From a virus, in the IMG/VR virus record IMGVR_UViG_3300023240_000010: a stretch of DNA of 64,000 bases, one strand, 5' to 3'. Position 1 is the first letter of the stretch; each line of letters opens with the position of its first letter. Below are positions 3,111 to 62,615 of the stretch, piece after piece. The position numbers and the translations under genes are program-made. Below the pieces are notes generated by a model, which had not been told where the DNA came from, did not search any database, and worked only from the letters and a program-made list of their open reading frames with translations.

Positions 3111-3118
3111 TATTTATA
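3111..3118 (-). promoter_or_regulatory. T4-type late promoter TATAAATA
   Basis: Exact consensus ~30 nt upstream of the ATG at 3079. Confidence 0.8.
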
Positions 3119-10171: not shown

Positions 10172-10179
10172 TATTTATA
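10172..10179 (-). promoter_or_regulatory. T4-type late promoter TATAAATA
   Basis: Exact consensus upstream of gp8. Confidence 0.8.
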
Positions 10180-12676: not shown

Positions 12677-12684
12677 TATTTATA
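12677..12684 (-). promoter_or_regulatory. T4-type late promoter TATAAATA
   Basis: Exact consensus upstream of gp25. Confidence 0.8.
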
Positions 12685-21085: not shown

Positions 21086-21116
21086 ACTAAATAGAGTTTC
21101 TTTAAGGTTATTTATA
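21086..21116. promoter_or_regulatory. Overlapping divergent late promoters: TATAAATA (- strand, 21109-21116) and ACTAAATA variant (+ strand, 21086-21093)
   Basis: Located between the divergent gp48 and gp4 starts; ACTAAATA recurs at 21636-21643 before gp2. Confidence 0.65.
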
Positions 21117-45799: not shown

Positions 45800-45828
45800 A
45801 TTATACACGTTCATAGCACGCCTGTCAA
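45800..45828 (-). promoter_or_regulatory. Perfect sigma70 promoter TTGACA-N17-TATAAT
   Basis: Read directly from the sequence. Confidence 0.9.
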
Positions 45829-45842
45829 CCTATTTCTTACTA

Positions 45843-46547
45843 TTATCTAGTCTTATTTTTCAACTCGGATTTAATCCACTTCTTAGCACGAGAATCTTTA
45901 ACTGGTTTCTTGGACCACGCTCCAATACCCTTGTACGCTGCCATAGTTTCTTTTGTGAAGTCTTTGCCTTCGCTGTTATCTACGATAAAGGTATTCTCTT
46001 GACCAAACATTTGCTGGTATGTTCCAATATTATCTTGCACTGCCTGCCACATCGGGGTAAGCATCTTCTTACCAATAGAGCGTTTACGTTGTGCGTCACG
46101 ATCAACAGCAGTTTCTAAGTTGGTGTTCACTACAATGATTGCAGTGTCATATCCCATCTTCTCTAGTTTTGCTCTTTGCGCTTTAATCTTGTCTGAGTCT
46201 TTACCAGTTCCATCAATAACAATACCTAGACGACCTTTAAGATACATCTCTTGTTTAGCGGCAGTTAATTTAGTTGCTTTACCACGTAGTTCTTGACCCT
46301 TAACAGAGAAGATATTATCTGGATTCATCTCCATGCCCGCTTTCTTCATAGCGTTTTCGAATGCGTCATCAGAGTTGACGACACGAAATCCAAAACTACC
46401 TAGTCCAGTTTTACCAACGATGAAAGACTTACCGCTACCAGGACCACCAGCAAGAAACACCGCCTTAAAAATAGCAGGATCATTTACGCCTTCGTTGATA
46501 GTGTCGTATAGTGCTTGCTCGGCGAGGTGCTGTTTAAATTTTAACAT
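45843..46547 (-). CDS. P-loop kinase (zeta-toxin/PNK-like) with CTS-like leader
   Basis: GGPGSGKS, VNSDD, IVIDGTG and R..R lid; N-terminal MLKFKQHLAE. Confidence 0.8.
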   Translation of the reverse strand: MLKFKQHLAEQALYDTINEGVNDPAIFKAVFLAGGPGSGKSFIVGKTGLGSFGFRVVNSDDAFENAMKKAGMEMNPDNIFSVKGQELRGKATKLTAAKQEMYLKGRLGIVIDGTGKDSDKIKAQRAKLEKMGYDTAIIVVNTNLETAVDRDAQRKRSIGKKMLTPMWQAVQDNIGTYQQMFGQENTFIVDNSEGKDFTKETMAAYKGIGAWSKKPVKDSRAKKWIKSELKNKTR

Positions 46548-46617
46548 TAAAGATCCATATGAGGTTGTGTTAGTTAATAGTATTTAGCGTTAGAACATCT
46601 TTCACATTCATTATATA

Positions 46618-47073
46618 TCACGATCTATTGTGCCAAGGTTCTGCTGGTCGCACAGGCATCGCAGGTTTAGATAAATGCTTTGCATGTATTTTGCAACCGA
46701 TGAATGCGTTATAGTATCGTTCGTCGAGCAGTACATCATATTCGAATTGTAACTTTGCTTCATAATAGGAGCATTCGCCTTTTGTTGTACATAACTTTAG
46801 AACTTCACGGTGATAGTTATCGACTCCAGTTCTCTTGATCGACTCTAATAGATGTTCGCTTGATCCGTAATACTTCTGCCAGTCAGATGGAACTTTCATC
46901 TTCACCTTTCTCTTACGGACACTGTTGACTGGCAGTGTCTTGGGTTTCCAGAAGAACTTCTTACCTATATACATTTTACCGGTATCTTTCTCGGTGATAC
47001 GATACACGAATCCAACATAGTCTTTTAAAAACTCTTCGCTGGGTTCAAATGTTTCCTCGTTCATATTCCACAT
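46618..47073 (-). CDS. denA: GIY-YIG endonuclease (T4 endonuclease II-like)
   Basis: GFVYRIT...MYIGKK...WQKYYGSS...YEAKLQF...YYN. Confidence 0.75.
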   Translation of the reverse strand: MWNMNEETFEPSEEFLKDYVGFVYRITEKDTGKMYIGKKFFWKPKTLPVNSVRKRKVKMKVPSDWQKYYGSSEHLLESIKRTGVDNYHREVLKLCTTKGECSYYEAKLQFEYDVLLDERYYNAFIGCKIHAKHLSKPAMPVRPAEPWHNRS

Positions 47074-47087
47074 GTTACTATATATCC

Positions 47088-48704
47088 TTAGAATAACCAG
47101 TATTCATTTTCATACTCTATCACAATGTTATCAAGACCAGTTGTCTGTAACACTTTGAATGCTTCATCAAAAGTATTTAGTATTGGCATGCCTTGAACAT
47201 TGAAGGAAGTGTTTATTAGGACTCCATCGAACGCTGTCAGTATGTCATAGATTGCGGCATTGCTCTCCTCCGTCACCACCTGCAGTCTCGCCGTATTGTC
47301 GTAGTGTGTTATAGAGAATAGTTTAGTTTGATACTCTGGCAACACATCCGCGACGAATTGCATACATTCCATGTTATCAAAGTTAGGAGAGTAAAAATAC
47401 TTAGGTGCATCTTCCTTTCTGCATATAGGAGCGAAGGGTCTGAACCACTCTCGAAACTTTACTCTAGCATTGAGCGTGTCCTTCATCTTTGGATTAGATG
47501 CGTCACATAGTATAGAACGATTGCCTAATGCTCTTGGTCCTACTTCCATGTTCCCAATACACATTCCTATTATCTTCTGCTCTTTAAGTAGGGCAGCAAT
47601 ATCAGTAGCATCGACTTTCTTTGCATCATACAGTTTGATGACAGGTTCTAAATATTTGTAGTCGAATATTCTTGGACCAGAATGTGTGACATCATACTTC
47701 TTCGTTGTCTTTAGATGTTCATATAGTATACCAAAACTTAGGCCGCCGTCGTGACAGTTGGGTGGGATGTATATGTTGACATGTGGCAAAGCACGTTTTA
47801 TTGCTTCATTAGCAAGAACATTTAATGCACCACCTCCAGACAATAATAGATTGTTGTCATGTGCTTCAATCTTATCGTGAAACTCTCGCACTATAGTCTC
47901 TACAAGTCCTTCTTCAAATGCTGCCTGAGCAGACCTAGCAAGCATATATGAATCGATGTTCTTTAGTTTCTTTGCGTACTCTGTAGTTTGAATAGCGGGT
48001 GAGATAGTCTTTCGCATCTTAAGTAATGGATTGTTCGAATCGTTCCAAGTTTCATTCTGACGTAATCGATGTTCCCACCACTCTGCTGTCATAGCATTTT
48101 TCATTATATCTGTCCACTTACGATTCAACTCACCGTACGCAGATAGACCCATTAGTTTACCAGGAACGTCAAGTGCATAAGTGTCATGCAGTTCTTTGAC
48201 CGACATGCCCATAGCAGTATAGACTAACGAAAAATTATGAAACTTACTTTCGACAGAGTGTCGATTGATGCCCTCGAAACACGAGTATTTGAATGCTGTA
48301 GTATCACCCCAACCATCATAAGTTATACACGCGGCGTTCTTAAAGGAAGCAGGCGCCTGTCCATACGCGCACCATGCATGAGCGTCATGATGATCTATCG
48401 CAGAGAATATTTCCTTTTCGGTATTAATACAACTGCGATTGATGAATGATAAATCACCGAACTGCGGTTTAAAGATTAGAAGTTCAAAGTCGTTTTCTAT
48501 ACCGTGAACTTCTTTTAGATGATCTAAGCACTTCTGTATATACACCGGATTCATACTGGTGGGTATATCTTTATGTACTTTGGTGTTGTGGTGTTTAATA
48601 CTAGAAACTCGCTCTAATTCATAGATGTAAAACGAGTCAGTATTAGGGTCATATACTGTCAGATTAGTATCATGACCCTCGAATAATGCTATAGTGGGTT
48701 TCAT
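47088..48704 (-). CDS. Carbamoyltransferase, NodU/CmcH family
   Basis: GHD, ELER, HHDAHA, DGWGD, GKLMGLSAYG, GGGALNV, EVGPRALGNRSIL, KFREWFRPFAP and NTSFN motifs. Confidence 0.93.
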   Translation of the reverse strand: MKPTIALFEGHDTNLTVYDPNTDSFYIYELERVSSIKHHNTKVHKDIPTSMNPVYIQKCLDHLKEVHGIENDFELLIFKPQFGDLSFINRSCINTEKEIFSAIDHHDAHAWCAYGQAPASFKNAACITYDGWGDTTAFKYSCFEGINRHSVESKFHNFSLVYTAMGMSVKELHDTYALDVPGKLMGLSAYGELNRKWTDIMKNAMTAEWWEHRLRQNETWNDSNNPLLKMRKTISPAIQTTEYAKKLKNIDSYMLARSAQAAFEEGLVETIVREFHDKIEAHDNNLLLSGGGALNVLANEAIKRALPHVNIYIPPNCHDGGLSFGILYEHLKTTKKYDVTHSGPRIFDYKYLEPVIKLYDAKKVDATDIAALLKEQKIIGMCIGNMEVGPRALGNRSILCDASNPKMKDTLNARVKFREWFRPFAPICRKEDAPKYFYSPNFDNMECMQFVADVLPEYQTKLFSITHYDNTARLQVVTEESNAAIYDILTAFDGVLINTSFNVQGMPILNTFDEAFKVLQTTGLDNIVIEYENEYWLF

Positions 48705-48737
48705 TTAATAGTGTCACCTTGTTGAGGATAACATTAT

Positions 48738-48884
48738 TTAGTCTTCCAGGAAAACCTCTTCCACTTCTGCTTCAGTTCCGCACATAGGACAATAGATCAC
48801 TGCCTCATCGACGTTTAACACATCGACAAAACAGTTACTATCACACACAGGACATTCTGACATAAATTTACGAGTATCTTCCAT
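48738..48884 (-). CDS. Small acidic zinc-ribbon/rubredoxin-like protein (48 aa)
   Basis: MEDTRKFMSECPVCDSNC...YCPMCGTEAEVEEVFLED; not in the ORF track. Confidence 0.72.
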   Translation of the reverse strand: MEDTRKFMSECPVCDSNCFVDVLNVDEAVIYCPMCGTEAEVEEVFLED

Positions 48885-49852
48885 CATGTTGGCACTCCTT
48901 CTGCATCCCATCCCCAATCACCGTCCATACCATTTACAGAGTATTCGGTGACTCGCTTCTCAAAGAAATTATCATGAGATGCTCCATTGAGTACCCAGTC
49001 CAACCAAGGTAATGGATTCTCTTTTACTTTAAACTTAGGTTTCATGCCTAGTTGTAACAAGCGTCTATCAGCAATGTGTCGGATGTATTGCTTAACATCT
49101 TCCTTCGCAAGACCTTCGATCTCGTGGTTGTTGTATGCTAAGTCAATGAACTTATCTTCTAACTTAACAGCATTCTTTGCCATCTCATAAATCTTTGACT
49201 TCAATTCGTCATTGACAATACGTGGATGCTCTTCGCAGAACTCACGGAACAACTTAGCGTTGCCTTGTACGTGTAGAGTCTCATCACGAATAGACCACTC
49301 AACAATAGTACCCATGCCTTTCATCTTACCGAAACGCTGGAAGTTCAATAGCATAACAAACGAAGAGAACAAACTCATACCTTCGTTGAATACTGACTGT
49401 GCTAATACTAATGCAAGACCTGTATGTGTATTGATACTGCCTTCTTTCATGAAGTCTAGTTTCTCTGCCATCGCTTTGTATTCAAGAAACTTGTGGAAGT
49501 CTTCGTCTGGCAATCCAAGCGTATCATTCAACAGAGCATATGCACGTTGATGTACACCTTCGCGATTAGCAAAAGACGATAGCATGTTACGGATCTCATT
49601 GTTCTTAAACTTAGGGATCAATAACTCATGGTAGTTCTCTCCCACTTGAACATCTGACTGTGTGAAGAGACGTAGAATCTGAGTAACAAACTCCTTCTCT
49701 TCTTCACTTAACTTGGTCTTCCAATCTTGTACGTCTTCGCTTAACTCCGCTTCATCTTCTACCCAATGTATCTCTTCGTGCTTCTTTGTCAAGTCCACTG
49801 CCCACGGGTAGGCAAATGGTTTGTAACTTTTACTGAATTCTAATAATGCCAT
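48884..49852 (-). CDS. nrdB: Ribonucleotide reductase class Ia beta subunit
   Basis: FTQSD, EGVHQRAY, EGMSLFSSF, RDETLH and NFFE motifs. Confidence 0.96.
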   Translation of the reverse strand: MALLEFSKSYKPFAYPWAVDLTKKHEEIHWVEDEAELSEDVQDWKTKLSEEEKEFVTQILRLFTQSDVQVGENYHELLIPKFKNNEIRNMLSSFANREGVHQRAYALLNDTLGLPDEDFHKFLEYKAMAEKLDFMKEGSINTHTGLALVLAQSVFNEGMSLFSSFVMLLNFQRFGKMKGMGTIVEWSIRDETLHVQGNAKLFREFCEEHPRIVNDELKSKIYEMAKNAVKLEDKFIDLAYNNHEIEGLAKEDVKQYIRHIADRRLLQLGMKPKFKVKENPLPWLDWVLNGASHDNFFEKRVTEYSVNGMDGDWGWDAEGVPT

Positions 49853-49864
49853 TAATCTACTCTC

Positions 49865-51859
49865 TTATCCGGAACACGCGAGACATTCATCATCGCCGTC
49901 GTTCACTACTTCTTTATCTAGGTATGTCATAAGTGCTTCATACCCACCAATGTATTCTCCACCAATATATATCTGTGGAACTGTTTTAACATCTTTACGA
50001 CCCGTTACTTCTGCCGATGTCTTACCTACCTCAGTTAGATTAACTTCATCATATGGAATACCACGTAGTCTCATTTCTTCTTTTGCCAATTGACAGAATG
50101 GACAATCTGGTTTAGAATATACTACGTTTCGCTTATCACCTTCTAGTGCAACTCTTTCTACTTTCTCTGATACATTCTCTGCACGAGACTTTGCTTCTGT
50201 ACGAAGATAGTACAGTCCTTTCAGTCCTAGTTTCCATGCATTGATATGCACTTTATTTACATACGACTTAGAAGAACCTGCTGGAAAGAATAGATTAACA
50301 CTCTGACCCTGACAGATATACTTCTGACGTTCACCTGCGTGTTGGACTACCCAGTTCTGATCTAACTCTTGCGCAGTCTTGAAGATTGCTTTCTCGCCTT
50401 CAGTCATAAACGGTAAGTGTTGAACAGAACCTTTGTTGGTGATGATACTTGTCCAGTTCGACTCGTTATCTTCGCCCTTATCAATCAGTAGTTGAATCAA
50501 GTATGGATTCTTAACAAGAAACGATCCAGCACGAGTACGGTGTGTGTATGCGTTTGCTTTACTCGGTTCAATAGAAGGACTAGTACTTAGTATTACTCCA
50601 CTTGAAGCGTTGGGTGCCACTGCCATGAGATGACTGTTTCTCCGTCCACTTCCCTTACCATCCAGATATTCACCGCGTTCTTGTGCCAAGAGTTCAGTTT
50701 CCAGAATAGCGTGGGTATTGATGTTTTTAAACACAGCATCGTTAATGTCCCGCGCTGCCTGGGACTCCCATGCAACTCCATGTCGTTGCAATAAACTGTG
50801 GAATCCCATCGCTCCCAGTCCGAGCGACCTTTCTCTTTCGGCGCTATACTTAGCACGTTCAATTGTGTCTGGTGCGTTGTTGATAAAGTACTGCAAGACG
50901 TTATCAAGCATACGGATAAGATCGCGAACAATCGTGGTGTCTTTCCATTCATCATAGTATTCCAAATTTAATGATGACAGACAGCATACTGCGGTACGTT
51001 CTGCACTAGTTGGTAAATGTATTTCGTTACACAGATTCGAACCATTGATCTTCAGACCTAAGTCTTTAAGTGGTTGAGGCAAATCTCTATTAGCAGTATC
51101 AATAAAGTTTAAGTAAGGTTCGCCTGTTCTGAAACGTGTTTCAATAATACGTTCCCATAACTTACGTGCGTTGATAGATTCTTTGACAGCACCATCTTTT
51201 GGATCTTTAAGATCGTATGAGGTGTTGTTTGTTACTGCGACCATAAATTCATCGTCGATGTTGATAGCATTATGCAAGTTAAGTGCTTTACGCTGTACGT
51301 CACCCGTAGGCACACGCATATTAAGAAACTCGATAATGTCAGGGTGACTTACGTTCATATATGCCGCATAAGAACCCTTGCGAGTCTTACCTTGACGATA
51401 TGCGATCATGTCAGCATCTACTGTGTGTAGAAAGGGCATAGGACCAGGCGCTACATCAGATACAGTTCGAACATCGCTCCAATGACCGCCAACTCCACCA
51501 CCATAAACAGACAACCAACGTAACTCAGAAGTATGACTAATCAAACCTTCTAATGTATCTGGAACATAAGTTAGAAAGCAAGAGATAGGCATTCCTTTAT
51601 CCGCTTTCTTACCAGGTGCATTAGATAGTACCGGACTAGCAAACATAAACCACTTCTTAGAGCAATAGTCGTATAGACGTTGCGCTAACTCTCCGTCCCA
51701 CTCTCCTTCATAAGACGACCAAGCAGTCGCCGCTCTTGCATATGCTTCCTGTGGTGAAGATTCATCATCATTCAAGTAGAAGTCTTTCAACATGCCTACC
51801 GCATAATCTTTTAGTAGTGCATCTCGCTTCTTATCAATTTTTACAGGCATTAAGTCCAC
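49865..51859 (-). CDS. nrdA: Ribonucleotide reductase class Ia alpha subunit with an inserted glutaredoxin domain
   Basis: SNLCNEI, APNASS and LYYLR, then VYSKPDCPFC...TVPQIYIGGEYIGGY, and a terminal CLACSG. Confidence 0.95.
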   Translation of the reverse strand: MDLMPVKIDKKRDALLKDYAVGMLKDFYLNDDESSPQEAYARAATAWSSYEGEWDGELAQRLYDYCSKKWFMFASPVLSNAPGKKADKGMPISCFLTYVPDTLEGLISHTSELRWLSVYGGGVGGHWSDVRTVSDVAPGPMPFLHTVDADMIAYRQGKTRKGSYAAYMNVSHPDIIEFLNMRVPTGDVQRKALNLHNAINIDDEFMVAVTNNTSYDLKDPKDGAVKESINARKLWERIIETRFRTGEPYLNFIDTANRDLPQPLKDLGLKINGSNLCNEIHLPTSAERTAVCCLSSLNLEYYDEWKDTTIVRDLIRMLDNVLQYFINNAPDTIERAKYSAERERSLGLGAMGFHSLLQRHGVAWESQAARDINDAVFKNINTHAILETELLAQERGEYLDGKGSGRRNSHLMAVAPNASSGVILSTSPSIEPSKANAYTHRTRAGSFLVKNPYLIQLLIDKGEDNESNWTSIITNKGSVQHLPFMTEGEKAIFKTAQELDQNWVVQHAGERQKYICQGQSVNLFFPAGSSKSYVNKVHINAWKLGLKGLYYLRTEAKSRAENVSEKVERVALEGDKRNVVYSKPDCPFCQLAKEEMRLRGIPYDEVNLTEVGKTSAEVTGRKDVKTVPQIYIGGEYIGGYEALMTYLDKEVVNDGDDECLACSG

Positions 51860-51895
51860 TCATTTTATTTTTGGGTCAGTCGTTTATATAGTGCT

Positions 51896-51924
51896 ATTAT
51901 ACACTACATTGGTGAGGAGGTCAA
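51896..51924 (-). promoter_or_regulatory. sigma70 promoter TTGACC-N17-TATAAT for nrdA
   Basis: Read directly from the sequence. Confidence 0.85.
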
Positions 51925-51939
51925 TCTATTTTGAAAAGT

Positions 51940-52116
51940 TTATTTAACTAGTTTCTTTCGCTTGCCCATTACTTCTATATAAGAACGGGTTAGAGGTCTA
52001 CGCTTTTTCTTCTTACCGTATGTCCAGTCAGCAGGATCACCAGGACTTGTTCCTGCGATACTTGGACCTGTTGATACTGTAGGTTCTTCTACCATAAACT
52101 CTTTAAATGATTTCAT
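51940..52116 (-). CDS. Small basic protein (58 aa) with CTS-like leader
   Basis: MKSFKEFMVEEPTVSTGPSIAG...KKKKRRPLTRSYIEVMGKRKKLVK; ATGA overlap; not in the ORF track. Confidence 0.75.
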   Translation of the reverse strand: MKSFKEFMVEEPTVSTGPSIAGTSPGDPADWTYGKKKKRRPLTRSYIEVMGKRKKLVK

Positions 52117-52700
52117 TTGTAGATTTCTCCTAGTGTGATATACACCATCTTATTAGTCGTTAGGTGTATTGCTTCATACACGTTCATGCCGAACACATCA
52201 CCGACTGGAAATGATTCGTCAAGTATACGAATTTGATCTTTAGCACGAACTGCATCTTCGAGTCCTTCGCCAAGAAGTTTATCACCCTTTACACGATATA
52301 TTCCTGGTGATAATTGATTGTTCTCAAGTACGTACCAAGCATGGTCTTCTGCTATCATATCAAGTGGATCAATGCCCGCTTCGACACATATTCTTGTTAG
52401 ATTCTTCTCGCCGACACTATAATGTTCTTTGAGTAGAAAGAGTGCTGCCGCATAAGAACCAACAGTGGTCTTGCCGCCAGGTAATTTACCTAATGCTCTT
52501 TTGATATTAAACACGAGACGAACAAAAGGTCCCAACGCAGTTTTCTTGTCAGGTGTATCAGTCTTCTCGCTCTTGATTCGCTTTCCATCTTCGTCGATTA
52601 GACCTAATTTGAACGCATCAGTCTCATCCCAAGGTGTAGTCAACATCTTCAAGAATCTAAACGTATAGAGCAGATCGCCCGCCTTACTTGCTAAACTCAT
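52113..52700 (-). CDS. Conserved T4-like protein (gp30.3-like N-terminus)
   Basis: YTFRFLKMLTTPWDETDAFKLGLIDEDGK...RLVFNIKR. Confidence 0.65.
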   Translation of the reverse strand: MSLASKAGDLLYTFRFLKMLTTPWDETDAFKLGLIDEDGKRIKSEKTDTPDKKTALGPFVRLVFNIKRALGKLPGGKTTVGSYAAALFLLKEHYSVGEKNLTRICVEAGIDPLDMIAEDHAWYVLENNQLSPGIYRVKGDKLLGEGLEDAVRAKDQIRILDESFPVGDVFGMNVYEAIHLTTNKMVYITLGEIYK

Positions 52701-53065
52701 ATCTTTCTCAACTCTTCGATAACACGCGCATCCATTTCAATGCCCGTATATGTTTCGTTTGTTATTACTCTTAGATATACAAGGAATGGTTTGATTGATG
52801 TCCAGTGGCGGTCATCTAACTTGTACTCTAGCATCTTTAAACCTGGTTCATTACCAAACACATTGAATACAACAATGAGATGATTTAATATCAAGTTCAC
52901 TGACAGTTTACCGCCGTCAAGATGTCTGTTCAATAGACGCTTGATATACTTAAATCGCTTTATATCTTCATAGAACTCCTCAGCATCGATACAAGTAGGA
53001 TTGTAGTAATTCTTTGCTGAGAAGATCATGAACGTAGATTCATCTATTGTTTCAAAAAGTTTCAT
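52697..53065 (-). CDS. Conserved T4-like hypothetical protein
   Basis: YYNPTC...EFYEDIKRFKYIKRLL...LILNHLIVVFNVFG. Confidence 0.78.
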   Translation of the reverse strand: MKLFETIDESTFMIFSAKNYYNPTCIDAEEFYEDIKRFKYIKRLLNRHLDGGKLSVNLILNHLIVVFNVFGNEPGLKMLEYKLDDRHWTSIKPFLVYLRVITNETYTGIEMDARVIEELRKI

Positions 53066-53103
53066 ATTTTCTATAGTCTATATGTTGTGTAGTATATAGA
53101 CTT

Positions 53104-53409
53104 CTATTTCTTCATCGCTTGTGTGCCAAAGAAAGCGCCAACAATTAATGATACAGATACAAAGTAAGTAGGCGCCATATCACCTAAAGTATTCGCCGCT
53201 GTTTCCATACCTATTACTGAAGCAAGTACGACAGCAAATGGATATAGCAACATACCGAACAATGCGAACCACGCCATCTTACGTTGCGCATCTCGCATTG
53301 CATCAGCATCATCGAGTTCTTTACGTTTAAACTCTAAATGCATTGCCTCTTCTTCTTTAGAGACTTTACCGTCTCCATTAGTATCAGCAGGATGCATAAT
53401 ATCAGACAT
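53104..53409 (-). CDS. Small 2-TM membrane protein with an EF-hand-like loop (holin-like?)
   Basis: DTNGDGKVSKEE plus two hydrophobic segments. Confidence 0.65.
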   Translation of the reverse strand: MSDIMHPADTNGDGKVSKEEEAMHLEFKRKELDDADAMRDAQRKMAWFALFGMLLYPFAVVLASVIGMETAANTLGDMAPTYFVSVSLIVGAFFGTQAMKK

Positions 53410-53410
53410 A

Positions 53411-53668
53411 TTAGTCTTCTAACTCTTCGGTGATACCCGAAGACAAATCAATGTCATAATGCAATGAAGTGACTTCTAGTTCCACATCAGTCATGGAATT
53501 CAATGAAGTCTGGTGAACAGGCGCTTCATTCAATTGAGTTGCTGTGCTTTCGCCATAGAACTCAGAGATTTGCTGAGAAGTAATACGTTGACTCTTTAGC
53601 AATTCGCCTTTTGGTGAAACCCAACCGTTCGGTGTTGGGATAGCATTCTTAGGTCCTCTAATAGGCAT
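53411..53668 (-). CDS. Hypothetical protein
   Basis: 85-aa ORF within the operon. Confidence 0.65.
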   Translation of the reverse strand: MPIRGPKNAIPTPNGWVSPKGELLKSQRITSQQISEFYGESTATQLNEAPVHQTSLNSMTDVELEVTSLHYDIDLSSGITEELED

Positions 53669-53672
53669 AATC

Positions 53673-54536
53673 TTATTCCTTACCAGTAGTTTTAGTTACA
53701 GCACCCTTAACAGGATTAACAATGTTCTTATCACCTATACGAGGTTCGTTGCCACGAGTACCAGACTGTGACTTAACTGCACGTCCTGCTTTAGTCGCAT
53801 CTTCGTGTCCAGCAGAATCGTCTGCCGCTAACTTAGGATCATCTTTGTCGTGCTTGTCCGCAAAGTCTTTCTCGCCTTTTGACTGAGTTTCGCCATGCTT
53901 CTCACCACCACCGGCAACTTGAGTCGCTTTCTTTGCTAGTTTAGTGGCGGCAACAGTCTCGAGGAATGTCAGAGTTGCTTCGCTCATACCCATTTCAACG
54001 CCATGTTCAAACATAACATCTACGCCTTCATCAGTACGTTGCAGAATTTCACCATAACCGTGGTCAGCATGAGTAACAGTATTAGACTCTTTAACTTCTT
54101 CGTAAAAATCATCTGCCATTTCTTTTCCATACTTCTTAATGAAGTCTTTCTTAGACATCTTTTCAGAATCTTTAACCATTTGGTCTTTCACTTTGCCTTC
54201 TTCTACTTCTTTTTTACCCGTGTCTGCTTTAGGACAATCGGGTTCGTGATTTTCCATAGAACCTTCGCAATCAGGACAAGGAGTCATTTTTTCCTCACCG
54301 CAAGATTCCTTAGCAGGTTTCTTACCGCCATCAATCTTATCATCGATTGCTTTGCGTCTCTTATGCAGAAACTCATCAGATGAATCAACATCGCCGTCGT
54401 TGTCAATGTCTTTATCTTTACGATCAACGAACTTCTTATCGTTCGCTTTATCATCTACGGGATCTAATTTCTTCTTTTCGCCTTCTTGTACGTCTTGCCA
54501 TAGTTGGGCGATATTTTTAATGTACTCGGGGTTCAT
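53673..54536 (-). CDS. Charged modular protein, probable internal head protein
   Basis: D/E/K-rich; DIDNDGDVDSSD loop; CPDC...H...C; HxxYGxG SH3-like segment. Confidence 0.65.
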   Translation of the reverse strand: MNPEYIKNIAQLWQDVQEGEKKKLDPVDDKANDKKFVDRKDKDIDNDGDVDSSDEFLHKRRKAIDDKIDGGKKPAKESCGEEKMTPCPDCEGSMENHEPDCPKADTGKKEVEEGKVKDQMVKDSEKMSKKDFIKKYGKEMADDFYEEVKESNTVTHADHGYGEILQRTDEGVDVMFEHGVEMGMSEATLTFLETVAATKLAKKATQVAGGGEKHGETQSKGEKDFADKHDKDDPKLAADDSAGHEDATKAGRAVKSQSGTRGNEPRIGDKNIVNPVKGAVTKTTGKE

Positions 54537-54554
54537 TGTGTTCTCCAGTTGCGT

Positions 54555-54854
54555 TTATTGGCCGATTACTATCTGCCCAGTTAGTAGTGCTAAAAAAATT
54601 GTTGCTATCAGACCGCCTGCCGCGAGACCAACCATCTGTATGTTGTTTACTTTTTCCATCAACGTGGTGACCTTAATATCTATGTCATCTAATTTCTTTG
54701 AGTGCAGATTCATACGTTCGTGTTGCTCCGCTCTTCGATTCTCCAAGTCCGATACTTTCTCCTGCACTCTTGCGAGTGAGATGATTGCTTCGGACATTTG
54801 GTCAATCTTGTCCTCTATTCTGCCTAGTCGATCTGCGTTTGTCATATTTCCCAT
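54555..54854 (-). CDS. Coiled-coil protein with C-terminal TM helix
   Basis: RLGRIEDKIDQM heptads and a hydrophobic C-terminus. Confidence 0.7.
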   Translation of the reverse strand: MGNMTNADRLGRIEDKIDQMSEAIISLARVQEKVSDLENRRAEQHERMNLHSKKLDDIDIKVTTLMEKVNNIQMVGLAAGGLIATIFLALLTGQIVIGQ

Positions 54855-54859
54855 ACAAT

Positions 54860-55636
54860 CTAGTTATCTACTTTCGCAGATGCCCTCCATTGATAGCAAC
54901 TCCAATAACCCGGAGTAGTTTTATCTTTCTTATCAGCACAATTGTGCCGCGCTCTGAAGGACTTTCGTCTTTCGGGATCATCACGTTTGATCTCCATGTT
55001 AGGATCACCAAACGTAACTTTAACTATATTACCTTTCTTATTAGTAACGTATACGCCAAACTTCTTCTTATTACCAGAAGGCAGTCTAAAAGGGTTATTT
55101 AGTGTAACTGATTTACCCTGATATTCTGCTTCTGTGATCTCTAGTTCTTCACATGTACAATCTTCATCAAGGTCTACAGATTCTTTCATTGAACCGAATC
55201 CGGGATCGAATCCAGCAATGCCACTAATATTCGCAGTTGCGGCAAGACGCAGATAACGCAACTTAACACTTTTGCTCTCAAACTCTGCGTGTTCAATCTC
55301 ACCATCAATCGACTTCTGTGCCAGGTTATATAGTAGACCACGTTTAACATCAATCTTAACTAAAGGAAAGATGTCGCCTGCCATACTATTACGAGTAGCA
55401 TAACGGAATACTGTTTGACCAGTCTTGACCTTTGCTTCCTTACCGACATACTTCTTGTCGCCAGCATCCAGACCGAACAGTACAATACCTTCTACCCTAC
55501 CGTGACCACATACACCGATCACTTTGTGACCTTTCTTGGTTCCGTAAGCGACTACCTTATCCTCACCCCAGTTACTAGGTGACTTATCCAAGAATTGCTG
55601 ATATGCTTCTGCTATAAATGATTTAAATTTTTTCAC
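54860..55636 (-). CDS. Two-module protein with CTS-like leader
   Basis: MKKFKSFIAE; C-terminal conserved module KKFGVYV...VTFGDP...RRKSFRARHNC...YWSC. Confidence 0.78.
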   Translation of the reverse strand: MKKFKSFIAEAYQQFLDKSPSNWGEDKVVAYGTKKGHKVIGVCGHGRVEGIVLFGLDAGDKKYVGKEAKVKTGQTVFRYATRNSMAGDIFPLVKIDVKRGLLYNLAQKSIDGEIEHAEFESKSVKLRYLRLAATANISGIAGFDPGFGSMKESVDLDEDCTCEELEITEAEYQGKSVTLNNPFRLPSGNKKKFGVYVTNKKGNIVKVTFGDPNMEIKRDDPERRKSFRARHNCADKKDKTTPGYWSCYQWRASAKVDN

Positions 55637-56712
55637 GACTTGTTCATTGTCTCGCGGAACTTAAAGAAATCTTTCTTCTCTTCGACAGACTCCCTCTCTC
55701 CCATTCGCTTACCTTGGGTAGCACTAGTGTTAGTGGGAAACTTATCTTTAGCAACACTAAACGAACTTGCTGGTGCCGCTTTAAGGGCAGGATCGCCCCA
55801 CAGTTTTATTGCTTTGTTAATTGCTTCGAATGCAGAACGTGCTTTAACCGACTGTGATGCGCCTTTCTTTAACTTATTGACTGGTTTTGTAACTGTAACT
55901 TTCCAATCTTGTACTGCTTCTTCAATAGTTGACTCTAGGAACTCCGATATTGGAGTATCGAAGTGTAAATCAACCGACTCACGCTTTGACTTCTGATGCG
56001 CCTTGTATTCTTTGCGTCTCTCTGCATCTGCTTTCTTCTCGGCAGGAGTCATCTGTGATACTGGTTTCTTGACCTCGTCAACAGATTCTTTCTTATTAGC
56101 ATTCTTCATCATATCTCTAAGACGCTTTAACTTGTCCATCTCACCAGGTTTCATTGCTGCCTGTTGGCGTCTTCGAGCAATTGCGGACATCGACTTACCA
56201 TATTCCTTTGTTGACTCTGAAGATATATCTTCTTTGGGTACACAGTTAGGCACTTCTTTACCATTCTTCTTCTTAGTGCCAACCATCTCGTAATCTTTCC
56301 AACAGGGATCATCTTTCATTTTTTTTGCTTCCGTAGTAATTACTTTACTTGTGGTCTTGAAATCTTTTTTACGCATAATAGTCTTAGTTATAACCTCGAA
56401 CTCTTCTTTGTTCTTATTATAACTTATAACCACAGGTAAGTTCAAGTCTTTTTGAATATCTTTTATGACTGCTTCGCTATCAGGATTCTGTCGAATATCC
56501 TTTGCTTTCTTCTTAGCAATCTTCTTAAATATCTGCTGTAACTCCGCAACACTAACTGCGGGTCTGTTTCGAGCATCATTCATACGATCCGCAAAATGTC
56601 GAGTAAATTCAATGTCTACATTAAACTTGGCGAGAATACGATCCGCAAACTTCTCAACATCATTAAGTTGCTTTTGTGTTACTTCTTCTGATATCACATT
56701 AAATGTCTTCAT
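55633..56712 (-). CDS. Multi-module protein with CTS-like leader; first module possibly BECR/RelE-like
   Basis: MKTFNVISEE; IEFTRHFADRMND...TIMRK; CWKDYEMVGTKKKNGKEVPNCV. Confidence 0.75.
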   Translation of the reverse strand: MKTFNVISEEVTQKQLNDVEKFADRILAKFNVDIEFTRHFADRMNDARNRPAVSVAELQQIFKKIAKKKAKDIRQNPDSEAVIKDIQKDLNLPVVISYNKNKEEFEVITKTIMRKKDFKTTSKVITTEAKKMKDDPCWKDYEMVGTKKKNGKEVPNCVPKEDISSESTKEYGKSMSAIARRRQQAAMKPGEMDKLKRLRDMMKNANKKESVDEVKKPVSQMTPAEKKADAERRKEYKAHQKSKRESVDLHFDTPISEFLESTIEEAVQDWKVTVTKPVNKLKKGASQSVKARSAFEAINKAIKLWGDPALKAAPASSFSVAKDKFPTNTSATQGKRMGERESVEEKKDFFKFRETMNKS

Positions 56713-56718
56713 AGAATC

Positions 56719-56726
56719 TATTTATA
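56719..56726 (-). promoter_or_regulatory. T4-type late promoter TATAAATA
   Basis: Exact consensus just upstream of the ATG at 56712. Confidence 0.7.
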
Positions 56727-57969
56727 CTTTTGGATTTGTCTGTTTATTTTTACGACGAGCGCGGTTCAGTCTAGCGCGGTCAAGAATACGATCATGTTTA
56801 ATCTTGTCTGTCTGAAGTTCTTGGTCGATAACATCTCTTGCTAAGGCAACTTCATCACCCTTTGCTTCAGTCTGACCAGGAACAAACTTCTTCGCTTTCT
56901 TAGTTGCTTCGGGTGTTCCCCAACCAGGAACGTTAGTCTCGTGCATAGTAGCAAGAACCCGAGAATTAATATCATATTGTTTAGCGATTTGACCCGCGTA
57001 GTATTCGATACCGTGACGCATGGGTTTACCATTCGCTTCTTTCTTCTTACGAGCAACAACATCTTTTAGTACTTTAAGTGCTGCCTGATATCGCTTCTTA
57101 GATACAGTAGATGCTTTAATCTTATCGATCATCTGACCTGTTGGTACTTCTGCTAACTCAACTGATTCTATCCATTGACGAGTGATGCCACCTTCATCTA
57201 ATGCTACGATAACATAGTTAGTACCAATAGTCTGAATGTATCCCGACTTACCTGACTCGCTGATAATAACTTTGTCAGTAAGATTGAATAACTCACCTTG
57301 AATGAATTTCTCTCGTGTCTCTGAGACTGATTCAAGTTCAATGTGATTTCTAAATGTAGTTGTTTCTTTGAGTCCCATCCCACCGCGAACATCATTGAAC
57401 AGACGCTTTGCATCTCTCGCATTCATCGACTTAGGAACGCCTTGAGAGAATGCTGTAAAATCGTTGTTACTAGCATTCTCGCGTTGCTTAGATGCAGACA
57501 TTCCCTCTACGCCTTCGGCATCAGGATCTCGTTCGCCCGCAGAGACAACCATAATCTTTTCGAAGTTATAGAAACCATGTCGTGCTTTCTCACCATTGTA
57601 CTTGTCAAGGAGAGTCTTAAATTCTGTTACACGATCCGAACCAACAACCATTGTAATGCGATTGAAACCTTGATCGAATAGTATTACAGCAATATCAAAC
57701 ACTGTACGTACTTTCTTATCAAGCATTACATTACGACCAAACTTAGGAAACATCTTGCGGACATGCTTCACTTTCTGGTCGTAGGTTAAGGGATCTTTCT
57801 TTGCGTTTTGTGATTGTGAGACATAAGCGAACCAGGGATTCTTGCCCGCTTTAGTAGATAGTGCTGTCAGAAGTTTACCATGTCCGATGGTAGGAGGATT
57901 CATACGACCGAAGGTGAAGAACACTTCACGGTTCTCTTCTACGAGATACTGTTTAAAGGAAGGAATCAT
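56722..57969 (-). CDS. HIGH-superfamily nucleotidyltransferase (cytidylyltransferase/NMNAT-like) with CTS-like leader and C-terminal modules
   Basis: FTFGRMNPPTIGH, VVGSDR and GMSASKQR motifs; MIPSFKQYLVEE. Confidence 0.85.
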   Translation of the reverse strand: MIPSFKQYLVEENREVFFTFGRMNPPTIGHGKLLTALSTKAGKNPWFAYVSQSQNAKKDPLTYDQKVKHVRKMFPKFGRNVMLDKKVRTVFDIAVILFDQGFNRITMVVGSDRVTEFKTLLDKYNGEKARHGFYNFEKIMVVSAGERDPDAEGVEGMSASKQRENASNNDFTAFSQGVPKSMNARDAKRLFNDVRGGMGLKETTTFRNHIELESVSETREKFIQGELFNLTDKVIISESGKSGYIQTIGTNYVIVALDEGGITRQWIESVELAEVPTGQMIDKIKASTVSKKRYQAALKVLKDVVARKKKEANGKPMRHGIEYYAGQIAKQYDINSRVLATMHETNVPGWGTPEATKKAKKFVPGQTEAKGDEVALARDVIDQELQTDKIKHDRILDRARLNRARRKNKQTNPKV

Positions 57970-58400
57970 TTTGGAGTATTTCCACCCTGCCGACGATCTT
58001 TCTCTAATTTACGAATAGCAGGTAAGTTTTTACGTGCAATCATATTTACCTTAGATTTCATCTTCTCGATACGCTTCTCGATCTCTTGACGGCGAGACGC
58101 AGGAACCTCCGATTTTGGTGTGCCCTTAGCGAATTTTTTGAATAGTGTACTGATCGCAGATTTGCGAGCGCGTTTCTGAAGAACTTCCTGACTAGCAGTT
58201 TTCTTAGCGGCACGTCTACGACCCATCGCTATCTTTGCTTTGTTCTTTTTCATCGAGCGACCGCGGGCACGTCTCTGTTGAAAGTCCAGTGCTTCGTCAG
58301 TTTCTTTACGCTGTTTAGCGTTTATCGCCTGCACTCTTTCGCCAGTCTGACTGTAGTCAACTGTTAAAAAGTCTTTAAACGATAATGGTTTATCTGCCAT
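57966..58400 (-). CDS. Highly basic protein, probable internal head/core protein
   Basis: LSFKDFL leader; R/K-rich body. Confidence 0.7.
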   Translation of the reverse strand: MADKPLSFKDFLTVDYSQTGERVQAINAKQRKETDEALDFQQRRARGRSMKKNKAKIAMGRRRAAKKTASQEVLQKRARKSAISTLFKKFAKGTPKSEVPASRRQEIEKRIEKMKSKVNMIARKNLPAIRKLEKDRRQGGNTPK

Positions 58401-58401
58401 C

Positions 58402-59631
58402 TTATTTACCTTTTGGTTTATCCCATCCTTTTAATATATCAGGTGAAAAGTTGTTGTATGAAAACTCCATACGATCAACAAGTTTCACCGCATCACCACC
58501 AAGTGTGTCTATTGCAACATAACCTTCTTGTCCAGTAACTTTGTATCCGTTCTTAGTTTTAACAAACGCACCAATATTACTTAATCTATTAAGGTTATTT
58601 ATAAGTTTTAATTTAACTAATACAATCAATTTCTGCAATTCAAACATCTTAATGAGACTTATTTTGTTTTCTTTGCTGAAGAACTTGAGGATTTCGTCGC
58701 GCTTTGCTTGCTGGGCGCCTTTGCCTTTTTCGGTGCTACGCTTGTCGATTTCTTTTTGGTACTTTTGGTTGATGTAGGCGATGAGTTTTTCGGCGTGCTT
58801 TTTGGAGTCTCCAATAACTTCTCCTCGTCTAACGTAGGTGTTATTAAAGGTCTCGATTGTCTGTGCAAGTCCTGGGTTAGAGGATAATACTCGAAGAGTG
58901 CTTCCAGAGATTTGGTTAAAAAGTTTGCCAATTTGTGATAGAGTTTCATTTACTTCATCCGTTTCTTTTTTAGTCATCGTAGCATTAGACACATCACGCA
59001 ATATAGCATCCTGTGACCAGACGTTCGTTGACTTTTTCATTTTGTTTACATCAACACCATATGATGCGCTCATAGTTTCAAAAGAACTACCTGTATATGT
59101 AGTGTGCCATACAATGCCTATTTTAGAAGCAAGTAGTTCTTTAGATTGTGTTACGGGTACTGCATACACGATTGTGTTAGGGTGAAAGGTAAGATATGTT
59201 TCTGTGCCGATCTTCTTCTTCTTTAGTTCAGAACGCTTGTATAGAAAGTCGCCTTGAATGACTCCTTTAATACCAAGTTCAGGTAAGTACTTCAATGCAA
59301 GTTTTAGTTTGTCATTGAGATCGCCAGATGTATCGTCATCGATGTCAGCATCAGTCTTGTATATCTTTGGATTCTTATTGAAGATGCCTTTCTTAGCAAC
59401 AAAGAACTTACCGTCAGAGGGATCAGTGCCGGCAAATACTGCTGGTGCGCCGTCCCACTTAACTGATACAGAACCTTCTTTCTTACCGCCAAGCATATCT
59501 CTTAACTCACGAAGAGCATTGATTGCTTGACGAGTTCCATCAGCACCACCGTAGATCACCTTATCTTCGATGTGGGTCATATGGGTATTCTTTTGTGCCG
59601 CTTCTGTAATGAACTCGTTAAAATTATCCAC
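58402..59631 (-). CDS. Ligase-fold (KxDG) nucleotidyltransferase, DUF6267-like, with CTS-like leader
   Basis: SVKWDGAP (motif I), IQGDF (III), EGYV (IV) and VKLV (V); MDNFNEFITE. Confidence 0.72.
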   Translation of the reverse strand: MDNFNEFITEAAQKNTHMTHIEDKVIYGGADGTRQAINALRELRDMLGGKKEGSVSVKWDGAPAVFAGTDPSDGKFFVAKKGIFNKNPKIYKTDADIDDDTSGDLNDKLKLALKYLPELGIKGVIQGDFLYKRSELKKKKIGTETYLTFHPNTIVYAVPVTQSKELLASKIGIVWHTTYTGSSFETMSASYGVDVNKMKKSTNVWSQDAILRDVSNATMTKKETDEVNETLSQIGKLFNQISGSTLRVLSSNPGLAQTIETFNNTYVRRGEVIGDSKKHAEKLIAYINQKYQKEIDKRSTEKGKGAQQAKRDEILKFFSKENKISLIKMFELQKLIVLVKLKLINNLNRLSNIGAFVKTKNGYKVTGQEGYVAIDTLGGDAVKLVDRMEFSYNNFSPDILKGWDKPKGK

Positions 59632-59944
59632 GTGTTACCACCATACTTATTTTGGTAATGTCTTCTTCCCACATCTCTCTATCTAACGTCAATGAACTTC
59701 TTCTCCAATCGGAGATGTATGGTCTACCAGTTCGAACCTTGGGAAAGTATTCGAAGTATCTTATATTCATTTTACTCAACTCTGGTATAGATACTCCAAT
59801 GGTTTGTACAATATTTCCTTTATAGTAAAGTTCCACCACTTCGTCCTCAAAGTATTTCTTAGTACCATACACTACTTTGAAGTCTGACTTCTTAGGATTA
59901 TCTATTTTTGTCTTCTCTGCGATGAACTCTTTAAAATTATTCAT
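59624..59944 (-). CDS. Small protein with CTS-like leader
   Basis: MNNFKEFIAEK starting at 59944. Confidence 0.7.
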   Translation of the reverse strand: MNNFKEFIAEKTKIDNPKKSDFKVVYGTKKYFEDEVVELYYKGNIVQTIGVSIPELSKMNIRYFEYFPKVRTGRPYISDWRRSSLTLDREMWEEDITKISMVVTRG

Positions 59945-60233
59945 GATCAGCAATCCACCTTTCAACTTCTGCTTTCGCTATAGTAACATTCTTATAACCG
60001 CTAACAGGGTATCTTGGACTATATGATGCTGGATGCATATCAAAGACTGTAGGCATCACTTTCTGACTGCCATCTTTATTAAATTTCATAGAATCAGCAC
60101 CAGATATACGTATTTGATACATACCATCAGAAGTAACGTGTTTGTACACCATCCTTTTATTCACGTATCCGTCAGCAACTTTATTCCACTTTACTTTAGT
60201 GGATTCTTCGAGATGGGTCTTAAATGACTTCAT
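59937..60233 (-). CDS. Small protein with CTS-like leader
   Basis: MKSFKTHLEES. Confidence 0.72.
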   Translation of the reverse strand: MKSFKTHLEESTKVKWNKVADGYVNKRMVYKHVTSDGMYQIRISGADSMKFNKDGSQKVMPTVFDMHPASYSPRYPVSGYKNVTIAKAEVERWIADHE

Positions 60234-60265: not shown

Positions 60266-60293
60266 ATTATAACATACTGGTACTGGTTGTCAA
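60266..60293 (-). promoter_or_regulatory. sigma70 promoter TTGACA-N16-TATAAT with extended -10 TG
   Basis: Read directly from the sequence. Confidence 0.8.
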
Positions 60294-62607: not shown

Positions 62608-62615
62608 TATTTATA
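62608..62615 (-). promoter_or_regulatory. T4-type late promoter TATAAATA
   Basis: Exact consensus ~20 nt upstream of the ATG at 62586. Confidence 0.8.

Follow-up and report, generated by a model that had tools for sequence, protein, structure and literature searches.

A shared N-terminal leader resembling the T4 capsid-targeting sequence probably tags unrelated cargo proteins of a marine T4-like myophage

Why do nine otherwise unrelated phage proteins, encoded close together, begin with nearly the same ten residues? Their genes lie within 15 kb of a 64-kb stretch of virus DNA (IMG/VR record IMGVR_UViG_3300023240_000010; the whole stretch is called the window, and all positions refer to it), and a sequence-only reading of this DNA had proposed that the common N-terminus is a leader like the one that targets the internal proteins (IPs) of phage T4 to the capsid. 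All nine leader-bearing N-termini named in that reading were found, seven with the strict core of the motif and two as looser variants, and seven of the nine genes are consecutive (54860–60233), as it had stated. The resemblance to T4, a prohead protease in relatives, the disorder and dispensability of the leader, its basic carriers, the variability of the locus and the [ILMV]xE linkers of fused domains all support the proposal, and we consider it likely that the shared N-terminus of about ten residues is a T4-IP-type capsid-targeting, cleavable propeptide.

The nine carrier genes, here k1 to k9, are all on the minus strand. Two stand outside the consecutive run: k1 (45843..46547) encodes a predicted P-loop kinase of 234 residues with leader MLKFKQHLAE and an isoelectric point (pI) of 9.7, and k2 (51940..52116) a basic protein of 58 residues with leader MKSFKEFMVE (pI 10.1). 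Within the run, where stops and starts overlap or abut, k3 (54860..55636; 258 residues, leader (V)KKFKSFIAE, pI 9.3) starts at a GTG that overlaps the stop of k4 (55633..56712; 359 residues, lysine-rich, pI 9.7). These are followed by k5 (56722..57969), a predicted HIGH-motif nucleotidyltransferase of 415 residues with leader MIPSFKQYLVE (pI 9.7); k6 (57966..58400), a very basic protein of 144 residues (29% Lys plus Arg, pI 11.2) with the variant leader MADKPLSFKDFLTVD; and k7 (58402..59631), a DUF6267 protein of 409 residues with leader (V)DNFNEFITE (pI 9.4), whose GTG start overlaps the upstream stop and corresponds to an ATG, in front of the same leader, in a relative with about 90% DNA identity. 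The last two are k8 (59624..59944; 106 residues, an ORFan with leader MNNFKEFIAE) and k9 (59937..60233; 98 residues, leader MKSFKTHLEE, pI 9.5). The start of k8 was taken as the ATG at 59944, which gives the canonical Met-x-x-Phe spacing and agrees with the leader in the related contig L009; an upstream TTG is an alternative start (MKGGLLIMNNF..., open reading frame to 59965).

We scanned a six-frame translation of the window for the strict core, F-[KN]-x-[FYH]-[ILM]-x-E. It occurs seven times, always 3–5 residues past the start codon of a real open reading frame (ORF) and nowhere else, against a chance expectation of 0.41 ± 0.63 (maximum 3) in mononucleotide shuffles of the window. Such a motif scan had been put forward in the sequence-only reading as a check, and it came out on the side of the proposal. 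Seven of the nine leaders have Phe at residue 4 and Phe, His or Tyr at residue 7; k6 has both Phe residues, displaced by an N-terminal extension, and k4 has Phe at 4 but Ile at 7. The leader closes with [ILM]-x-E in eight of the nine.

The source of the window is a T4-like marine myophage. A megablast search of the region against phage records gave only short DNA-level matches to isolates, in ribonucleotide reductase genes, and protein-level searches were therefore needed. The nearest records at the protein level are Phage C48C1, Stenotrophomonas phage DLP6, Methylophilales phage Melnitz and Pelagibacter phage HTVC008M, and several hundred T4-like cyanophages come next. Kyanoviridae is the family given in isolate records for the HTVC008M/Melnitz/C48C1-like marine lineage. 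Two related contigs (L009 and L010) share 88–92% DNA identity with the window. The DUF6267 protein, 68% identical to its C48C1 counterpart, is encoded in more than 594 IMG/VR stretches, and its matches form at least 8000 clusters at 90% and 2549 at 50% identity.

Among these relatives the leader recurs at the same place. A scan of 889 kb from 80 related IMG/VR loci gave 122 cores, and 114 of these are N-terminal in ORFs of 35 residues or more. The complete 156-kb genome of C48C1 has five strict cores. Four stand at the N-terminus of a gene of the homologous block, and the fifth is internal and due to chance; two further genes of that block have looser leader forms. A loose match in the UvsW-like helicase of C48C1 (MKDYSHFMVE) was treated as chance. 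In Melnitz and, in more degenerate form, in HTVC008M the leader is found on homologous genes, and in the soil phage DLP6 on the DUF6267 protein; in the orthologues of cyanophage Syn1, the one cyanophage set in which it was sought, the leader is absent. Clustering of the tagged proteins from relatives gave at least 23 unrelated protein families with the leader, and of 128 non-identical leaders (23 families), 68 have the Phe anchor at residue 4 and 32 have it at residue 5. Individual carriers keep it as well: relatives of k1 begin MKSFKT[YF]L[ND]E, k2 is kept with its leader in L009, L011, L015, L017 and L020, k9 in L009, L010, L033 and L034, and all 54 distinct relatives of k5 have it. The C48C1-type orthologue of k6 has a canonical leader, MLSFKQFVSE.

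The principle of a leader that sends proteins into the head is classical T4 biology. The T4 ipII and ipIII products (NC_000866) both start with MKTYQEFIAE followed by Ala, and the leaders of k8 (MNNFKEFIAE) and k3 (MKKFKSFIAE) are identical to this sequence at six of ten residues. In the T4 capsid-targeting sequence (CTS), residues 4 and 7 are, by suppressor analysis, the main determinants of targeting and residues 8 and 10 those of processing, and an Asp at position 10 stops cleavage, not targeting (PMC9026906, section 2.6). The positions conserved in the window leaders (F4, F/H/Y7, I/L/M8 and E10) are these four. The CTS of IPI, IPII and IPIII, like the propeptides of Alt, is removed by the prohead protease gp21, and unrelated basic proteins there too share a ten-residue leader in which residues 4 and 7 are aromatic, residue 8 is Ile or Leu and residue 10 is Glu.

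The leader is a separable, disordered and dispensable add-on. About one third of 150 DUF6267 representatives have it 12–14 residues before the conserved KNxHxxHxED, and many others begin at KNxHxxHxED itself. In AlphaFold (AF2) models of k7 and k5, residues 1–11 have a predicted local distance difference test score (pLDDT) below 50 and directly precede well-folded domains. The carriers are also uniform in charge: all nine have a pI between 9.1 and 11.2, against a median of 5.7 for the 62 other genes of the window, only nine of which exceed pI 9 (Fisher p = 6.5e-7 versus the carriers). T4 IPII and IPIII have pI 9.3 and 9.5. This basic charge is expected of proteins lodged among packaged DNA, and fits such a location. 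Inside the carrier block, positions 53673–54536 (minus strand) encode an acidic protein of 287 residues (pI 5.1) that has no leader; it has short modules, phrog_22379 and phrog_4359, in common with k4 and k5, and could be a partner or chaperone of basic cargo.

A leader of this type calls for a prohead protease, and a search of seven relatives (C48C1, Melnitz, HTVC008M and four large related contigs) found a gp21-type protease (Peptidase_S77) in every one (E 1e-33 to 4e-44); one Peptidase_S77-bearing contig also encodes a DUF6267 protein 98% identical to k7. In C48C1 the protease gene adjoins a highly acidic gp22-like scaffold and the major capsid protein, which has several [LI]xE sites in its N-terminal region.

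Sites that such a protease could cut are also found within fused cargo proteins. The N-terminal domain of k4 (residues 10–130) is internal in many relatives, where it is fused behind the nucleotidyltransferase at junctions such as ELISE|DV, ELVSE|EV and FKDMYEE|V, and Atlas clusters join it to CTP_transf_like, PAP2, NTP_transf_2 and DUF6267. The k3 domain is internal in L033 and L034, behind the junction ...SVELDE|AYQQF. DUF6267 is fused behind the kinase (P0123), the nucleotidyltransferase (P0187, P0254) and the C-terminal module of k3 (P0125), a module that matches phrog_7595. Most of the 18 fusions examined have [ILMV]xE or a complete leader 3–6 residues before the domain, which fits an endoprotease that frees the modules whether they are made as separate genes or as polyproteins. 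As read from the sequences, the cargo is modular: a domain that has a leader-tagged gene to itself in one relative may be part of a polyprotein with [ILMV]-x-E linkers in another. One long ORF of L021 contains a complete leader-like sequence, IPNCVPESFKSFIGEAVKIS, at frame-0 residue 4682 of the locus translation (about nt 14047), preceded by 241 codons and followed by 141; the ORF resembles a fusion of a CxxC module of the k4 C-terminal type with another cargo, in which the tag is kept as a linker.

The leaders also bound a gene that comes and goes. L009 and L010 are collinear with the window through k9 and the leader ATGAATAATTTTAA(A/C)GAGTTCAT, after which L009 continues directly into DUF6267; in the window, the 96 residues that make up the k8 body and a second leader copy, GTGGATAATTTTAACGAGTTCATT, come between the shared leader and DUF6267. 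The two copies that flank the k8 cassette are at 59915..59944 (ATGAATAATTTTAAAGAGTTCATCGCAGAG, upstream) and 59602..59631 (GTGGATAATTTTAACGAGTTCATTACAGAA, downstream), both on the minus strand. The alignment with L009 shows that k8 is absent from relatives about 90% identical in DNA, and no k8 homologue was found in the 83 loci searched for cargo homologues. As the k8 body lies between two leader copies and is missing in L009, a cargo gene has been inserted or deleted between leader copies. This cassette behaves like the IP loci of T-even phages, which PMC2839356 (citing Repoila 1994 and Comeau 2007) describes as variable, with more than 30 IP variants, and tied to early promoters.

Does the leader then matter as peptide, or as nucleic acid? 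It could be a translation-initiation element, a RegA-type operator or a pure recombination site, the peptide being incidental: TTTAA(A/G) is common at the nucleotide level, RegA is encoded in relatives, and the k8 cassette with its two bounding copies indicates that leader sequence does serve as a recombination substrate. The resemblance among carriers is at the protein level, however, with codons that differ synonymously and 40 nt of unrelated upstream sequence. The 146 distinct leader cores from relatives use several synonymous codons at every conserved position (six for Leu and three for Ile at P3; TAT, TAC, TTT, TTC, CAT and CAC at P4), and the motif is kept at domain junctions in long ORFs, where no initiation occurs. 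This codon usage supports selection on the leader at the protein level and makes a function in RNA or DNA very improbable. We give equally little credence to the leader being a functionless relic of common descent, a duplicated exon-like N-terminal piece spread by gene shuffling. Duplication and recombination at leaders are clear, and domain shuffling is evident, but the four positions are held across at least 23 families, as far as a soil Stenotrophomonas phage, despite saturating synonymous change, which indicates purifying selection.

If the leader is instead a capsid-targeting propeptide, its action would follow the T4 scheme. During prohead assembly the aromatics at positions 4 and 7 would bind the scaffolding core, and the tagged protein would thereby be built into the prohead. 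A gp21-type prohead protease would cut after Glu10 of the [I/L/M]-x-E and free the basic mature protein, which would remain among the packaged DNA and, by analogy with the T4 IPs and Alt, would exit with the DNA at infection. Recombination between leader copies would add and remove cargo genes. In this scheme the binding to the core, the cleavage, packaging and ejection, and the biological role, counter-defense included, are inferred from the features above.

Several observations weigh against this scheme. The k4 leader, MKTFNVISE|E, lacks an aromatic at position 7 and reaches Ile-Ser-Glu one residue early, and the k6 leader, which keeps both Phe residues, has Val-Asp in place of x-Glu and thus no Glu at the cut position; the k6 form, FKDFxxVDY, is itself conserved in about 60 relatives. 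The head module lies outside the window, and the protease of this phage is therefore deduced from relatives. The seven-gene run sits among nucleotide-metabolism genes, not in the head module, and behind a perfect, early-looking promoter of the sigma-70 type (TTGACA-16-TATAAT with TG, 12/12; 60266..60293, minus strand; conserved in L009). Late-promoter-like motifs were found near only two of the carriers. One is a copy of the T4-type late promoter consensus TATAAATA at 56719..56726 (minus strand), 6 nt before the k4 start, and the other is the variant CTAAATA at 46581..46587 (minus strand), 33 nt upstream of the k1 start, which resembles a late promoter of the cyanophage type. Early-type transcription speaks mildly against packaging in the head, but T-even IP loci are likewise linked to early promoters (PMC2839356).

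In the window as a whole, TATAAATA occurs seven times on the minus strand and not on the plus strand. Four of the seven copies precede the starts of other, structural-looking genes by 21–33 nt, as T4-type late promoters would; apart from the k4 copy, copies are at 3111–3118, 10172–10179, 12677–12684, 21109–21116 and 62608–62615, all on the minus strand. Sigma-70-type promoters are found at 45800–45828, 51896–51924 and 60266–60293 (minus strand; two 12/12, one 11/12), each in the intergenic gap ahead of a gene run. The total of promoter-like sites in the window is not above that in shuffles.

A further point on the negative side is that we found no virion proteome or N-terminal sequence for the window phage or its leader-bearing relatives. 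The closest data are from cyanomyoviruses: in CsCl-purified particles, mass spectrometry detected the cytidylyltransferase of the homologous gene block, neighboring unknown proteins and kinases of other families, and the authors write of "frequent detection" of such enzymes while allowing for carry-over or contamination (PMC10665884). Since the Syn1 homologues have no leader, these detections support packaging of the cargo family and not the role of the tag. The presence of a leaderless cyanophage nucleotidyltransferase in virions would mean either that the leader is not the sole route into the capsid or that the detections are carry-over.

The early-type promoter and the missing virion data would also suit an N-terminal tag for some other process, for example a degron or processing signal that times early proteins and acts only in the producing cell. 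The strength of the promoter upstream of the run, the position of the carriers among replication and nucleotide-metabolism genes and the disorder of the leader, as in degrons, speak for such a tag. We nevertheless regard it as unlikely. The leader matches the T4 CTS at exactly the four positions mapped functionally (PMC9026906), the carriers share with the T4 IPs a uniformly basic charge that would not be expected of degron-tagged proteins, the [ILMV]xE linkers within fusions fit a gp21-type endoprotease, and homologues have been reported in virions (PMC10665884).

What would a capsid-targeting leader deliver? The sequence-only reading had listed a kinase, a nucleotidyltransferase, a ligase-fold protein and a possible RNase among the carriers. 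Profile, invariant-motif and fold matches agree with the first three; in Pfam, PHROG and Atlas searches none of the nine carriers matched an RNase family or fold, so the RNase is unsupported. The k1 protein matches Pfam Zeta_toxin (6.8e-10, 39.2 bits; cut-off 22.3), AAA_33 (3.4e-9, 37.6 bits; cut-off 27) and the PHROG polynucleotide kinase (1.5e-9), and has the Walker A motif GPGSGKS; a sequence search against PDB chains gave weak adenylate-kinase and zeta-toxin matches only. By these profiles, k1 is assigned as a P-loop kinase of the zeta/AAA_33 type.

For k5, the PHROG cytidyltransferase profile matches at 1e-62 and Pfam CTP_transf_like scores 19 bits, just below the cut-off of 21 bits. Its (T/H)xGH signature is T27-I-G29-H30, in which T27, G29 and H30 are invariant among 44 sequences. 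The AF2 model (pLDDT 75) matches NadD and phosphopantetheine adenylyltransferase (PPAT) in Foldseek (E 2e-4, prob 1.0, TM by target 0.56–0.65). The signature and model identify k5 as a predicted HIGH-motif nucleotidyltransferase with a fold closest to nicotinate mononucleotide (NaMN) adenylyltransferase (NadD) and PPAT. In C48C1 the annotated start of the corresponding cytidyltransferase (L001 17688–19031; OQ984149.1 63514–64857), MNPPTIGH..., omits the leader together with the first beta-strand; translation from a GTG further upstream yields VIKNFSQYLLEEEREVYFTFGR, in agreement with all relatives.

The k7 protein belongs to DUF6267 (Pfam, 1.5e-103) and has no sequence-level match to any ligase family in Pfam or PDB-chain searches; the latter returned nothing useful for k5 either, and Foldseek with the k7 model gave nothing significant. 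Its sequence does have a ligase-type motif I, KxDG (K58-W-D60-G61), with K58, D60 and G61 invariant in 116 sequences of 35–62% identity. E369-G370 and K383 are invariant in the same 116 sequences and, standing in the sequence order of ligase motifs IV (EGxx) and V (K-x-K region), are candidates for these motifs. The AF2 model has a pLDDT of 94 and a predicted TM score (pTM) of 0.91, and VIA-align against all representatives matched it to REL1 (Z 7.7 over 194 residues), T4 Rnl2 (Z 7.6 over 182) and Trl1 (Z 7.6 over 198), with the entries 1xdn (Z 7.7), 5cot (7.7), 2hvq (7.6), 6n0t (7.6), 1s68 (7.4) and 9do4 (6.6). Every long VIA-align match (162–201 residues, Z 6.5–7.7) is a ligase, and all of these are RNA or tRNA ligases (REL1, Naegleria RNA ligase, T4 Rnl2, Trl1, T4 Rnl1) except the S. 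solfataricus DNA ligase 2hiv. A Z of about 7.6 is middling for VIA-align, which counts against the assignment. On the model, we assign k7 and DUF6267 a ligase-like nucleotidyltransferase fold closest to RNA ligases, and predict that k7 is an enzyme. Like Rnl2, REL1 and Trl1, DUF6267 combines KxDG with a ligase-type nucleotidyltransferase fold, and its fusions to the kinase recall the ligase–kinase pairing of Trl1; it differs from known ligases in a large helical insertion and in its C-terminal part.

Among the other carriers, k6 is very basic and, from its composition, may bind DNA. Profile searches gave no assignable function for k2, k3, k4, k8 or k9. A BrnT/DUF4258-like toxin fold was suspected for the N-terminal domain of k4 from an HFADRM motif and was dropped, as no tool supported it.

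The natural kinase–DUF6267 and nucleotidyltransferase–DUF6267 fusions argue that kinase, nucleotidyltransferase and DUF6267 act together, and RNA-end healing and sealing as their joint role is a reasonable guess, no more. A bolder and rather doubtful extension would place this healing and sealing kit in the capsid, to be delivered with the DNA and to reverse tRNA- or mRNA-cleaving defenses from the first second of infection; the 30-nt leader would be an integron-like recombination site that permits cargo gain in one step, in a lineage among the most abundant myophages of the ocean. Compared with the RNA repair pair of T4, Pnkp and Rnl1, the carrier set has no end-healing phosphoesterase, and the T4 repair enzymes are not packaged.

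How far do known packaged proteins resemble the carriers? T-even IP loci are likewise variable, early-promoter-linked and shaped by recombination, and the relatives of the window phage encode the gp21-type protease and acidic scaffold. The host phage here belongs with the HTVC008M/Melnitz/C48C1-like Kyanoviridae, however, and not with the Straboviridae; three carriers are enzymes of 234–415 residues, the modules alternate between split genes and polyproteins, and no mature part of a carrier is homologous to a T4 IP. Unlike the T4 IPs, the carriers are known from sequence alone. The inner-body and ejection proteins of phiKZ, 201phi2-1 and SPN3US likewise undergo gp21-related cleavage after x-x-Glu, with removal of propeptides and in some cases at multiple sites (PMC9026906, section 3.2; PMC5694885), but those jumbo phages have another short motif, no uniform ten-residue N-terminal tag, and a structured inner body.

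Polyvalent proteins and effectors fused to MuF or portal domains (Iyer, Burroughs, Aravind) are likewise shuffled enzymatic and small domains predicted to be packaged in the head and injected (PMC9503650). Packaging of the window proteins would rest on a cleavable leader in place of fusion to a structural head domain, and their modules are mostly separate genes. The cyanomyoviruses S-CREM2, S-CBWM1, S-SZBM1 and S-SCSM1 have the same block beside replication genes, with the DUF6267 gene adjoining the cytidylyltransferase gene (PMC10665884). They differ in that the Syn1 orthologues have no leader and that their virion kinases are of the APH/ChoK or Ser/Thr type, not of the P-loop family of k1.

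Our literature search found no paper describing leader-tagged cargo for the HTVC008M/Melnitz-like lineage or for DUF6267, and none on DUF6267 or on internal proteins of HTVC008M. Should the tag function as it does in T4, a very abundant group of marine phages would use its capsids to deliver proteins as well as to contain DNA, and the proteins that uncultured T4-like phages inject could be listed by a simple sequence rule. The unexplained enzymes in virion proteomes of related cyanophages would then have a possible mechanism as well, although the Syn1 set that was checked has no tag. The RNA-ligase-like enzyme, the kinase, the nucleotidyltransferase and the small variable proteins are then candidates for counter-defense at time zero. 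The locus shows how such an arsenal may evolve, by cassette insertion from leader to leader and by domains that switch between tagged genes and putatively protease-cut polyproteins, and DUF6267, a large uncharacterized family, gains a predicted fold and a likely chemistry.

Two further observations concern other genes of the window. Positions 52113–53065 hold a phrog_407/phrog_18642 gene pair which, followed by a small leader-tagged gene, is conserved from cyanophage Syn1 to HTVC008M (homologues in L002, L003 and L004) and the window, and a nearby gene of the block in Syn1 is annotated as "head protein". A gene of 151 residues (46618–47073, minus strand) matches phrog_447 ("NAD synthetase") as well as several homing-endonuclease PHROGs, and the genes labeled "NAD synthetase" in relatives (C48C1 CDS0110) seem to be misannotated GIY-YIG-type endonucleases.

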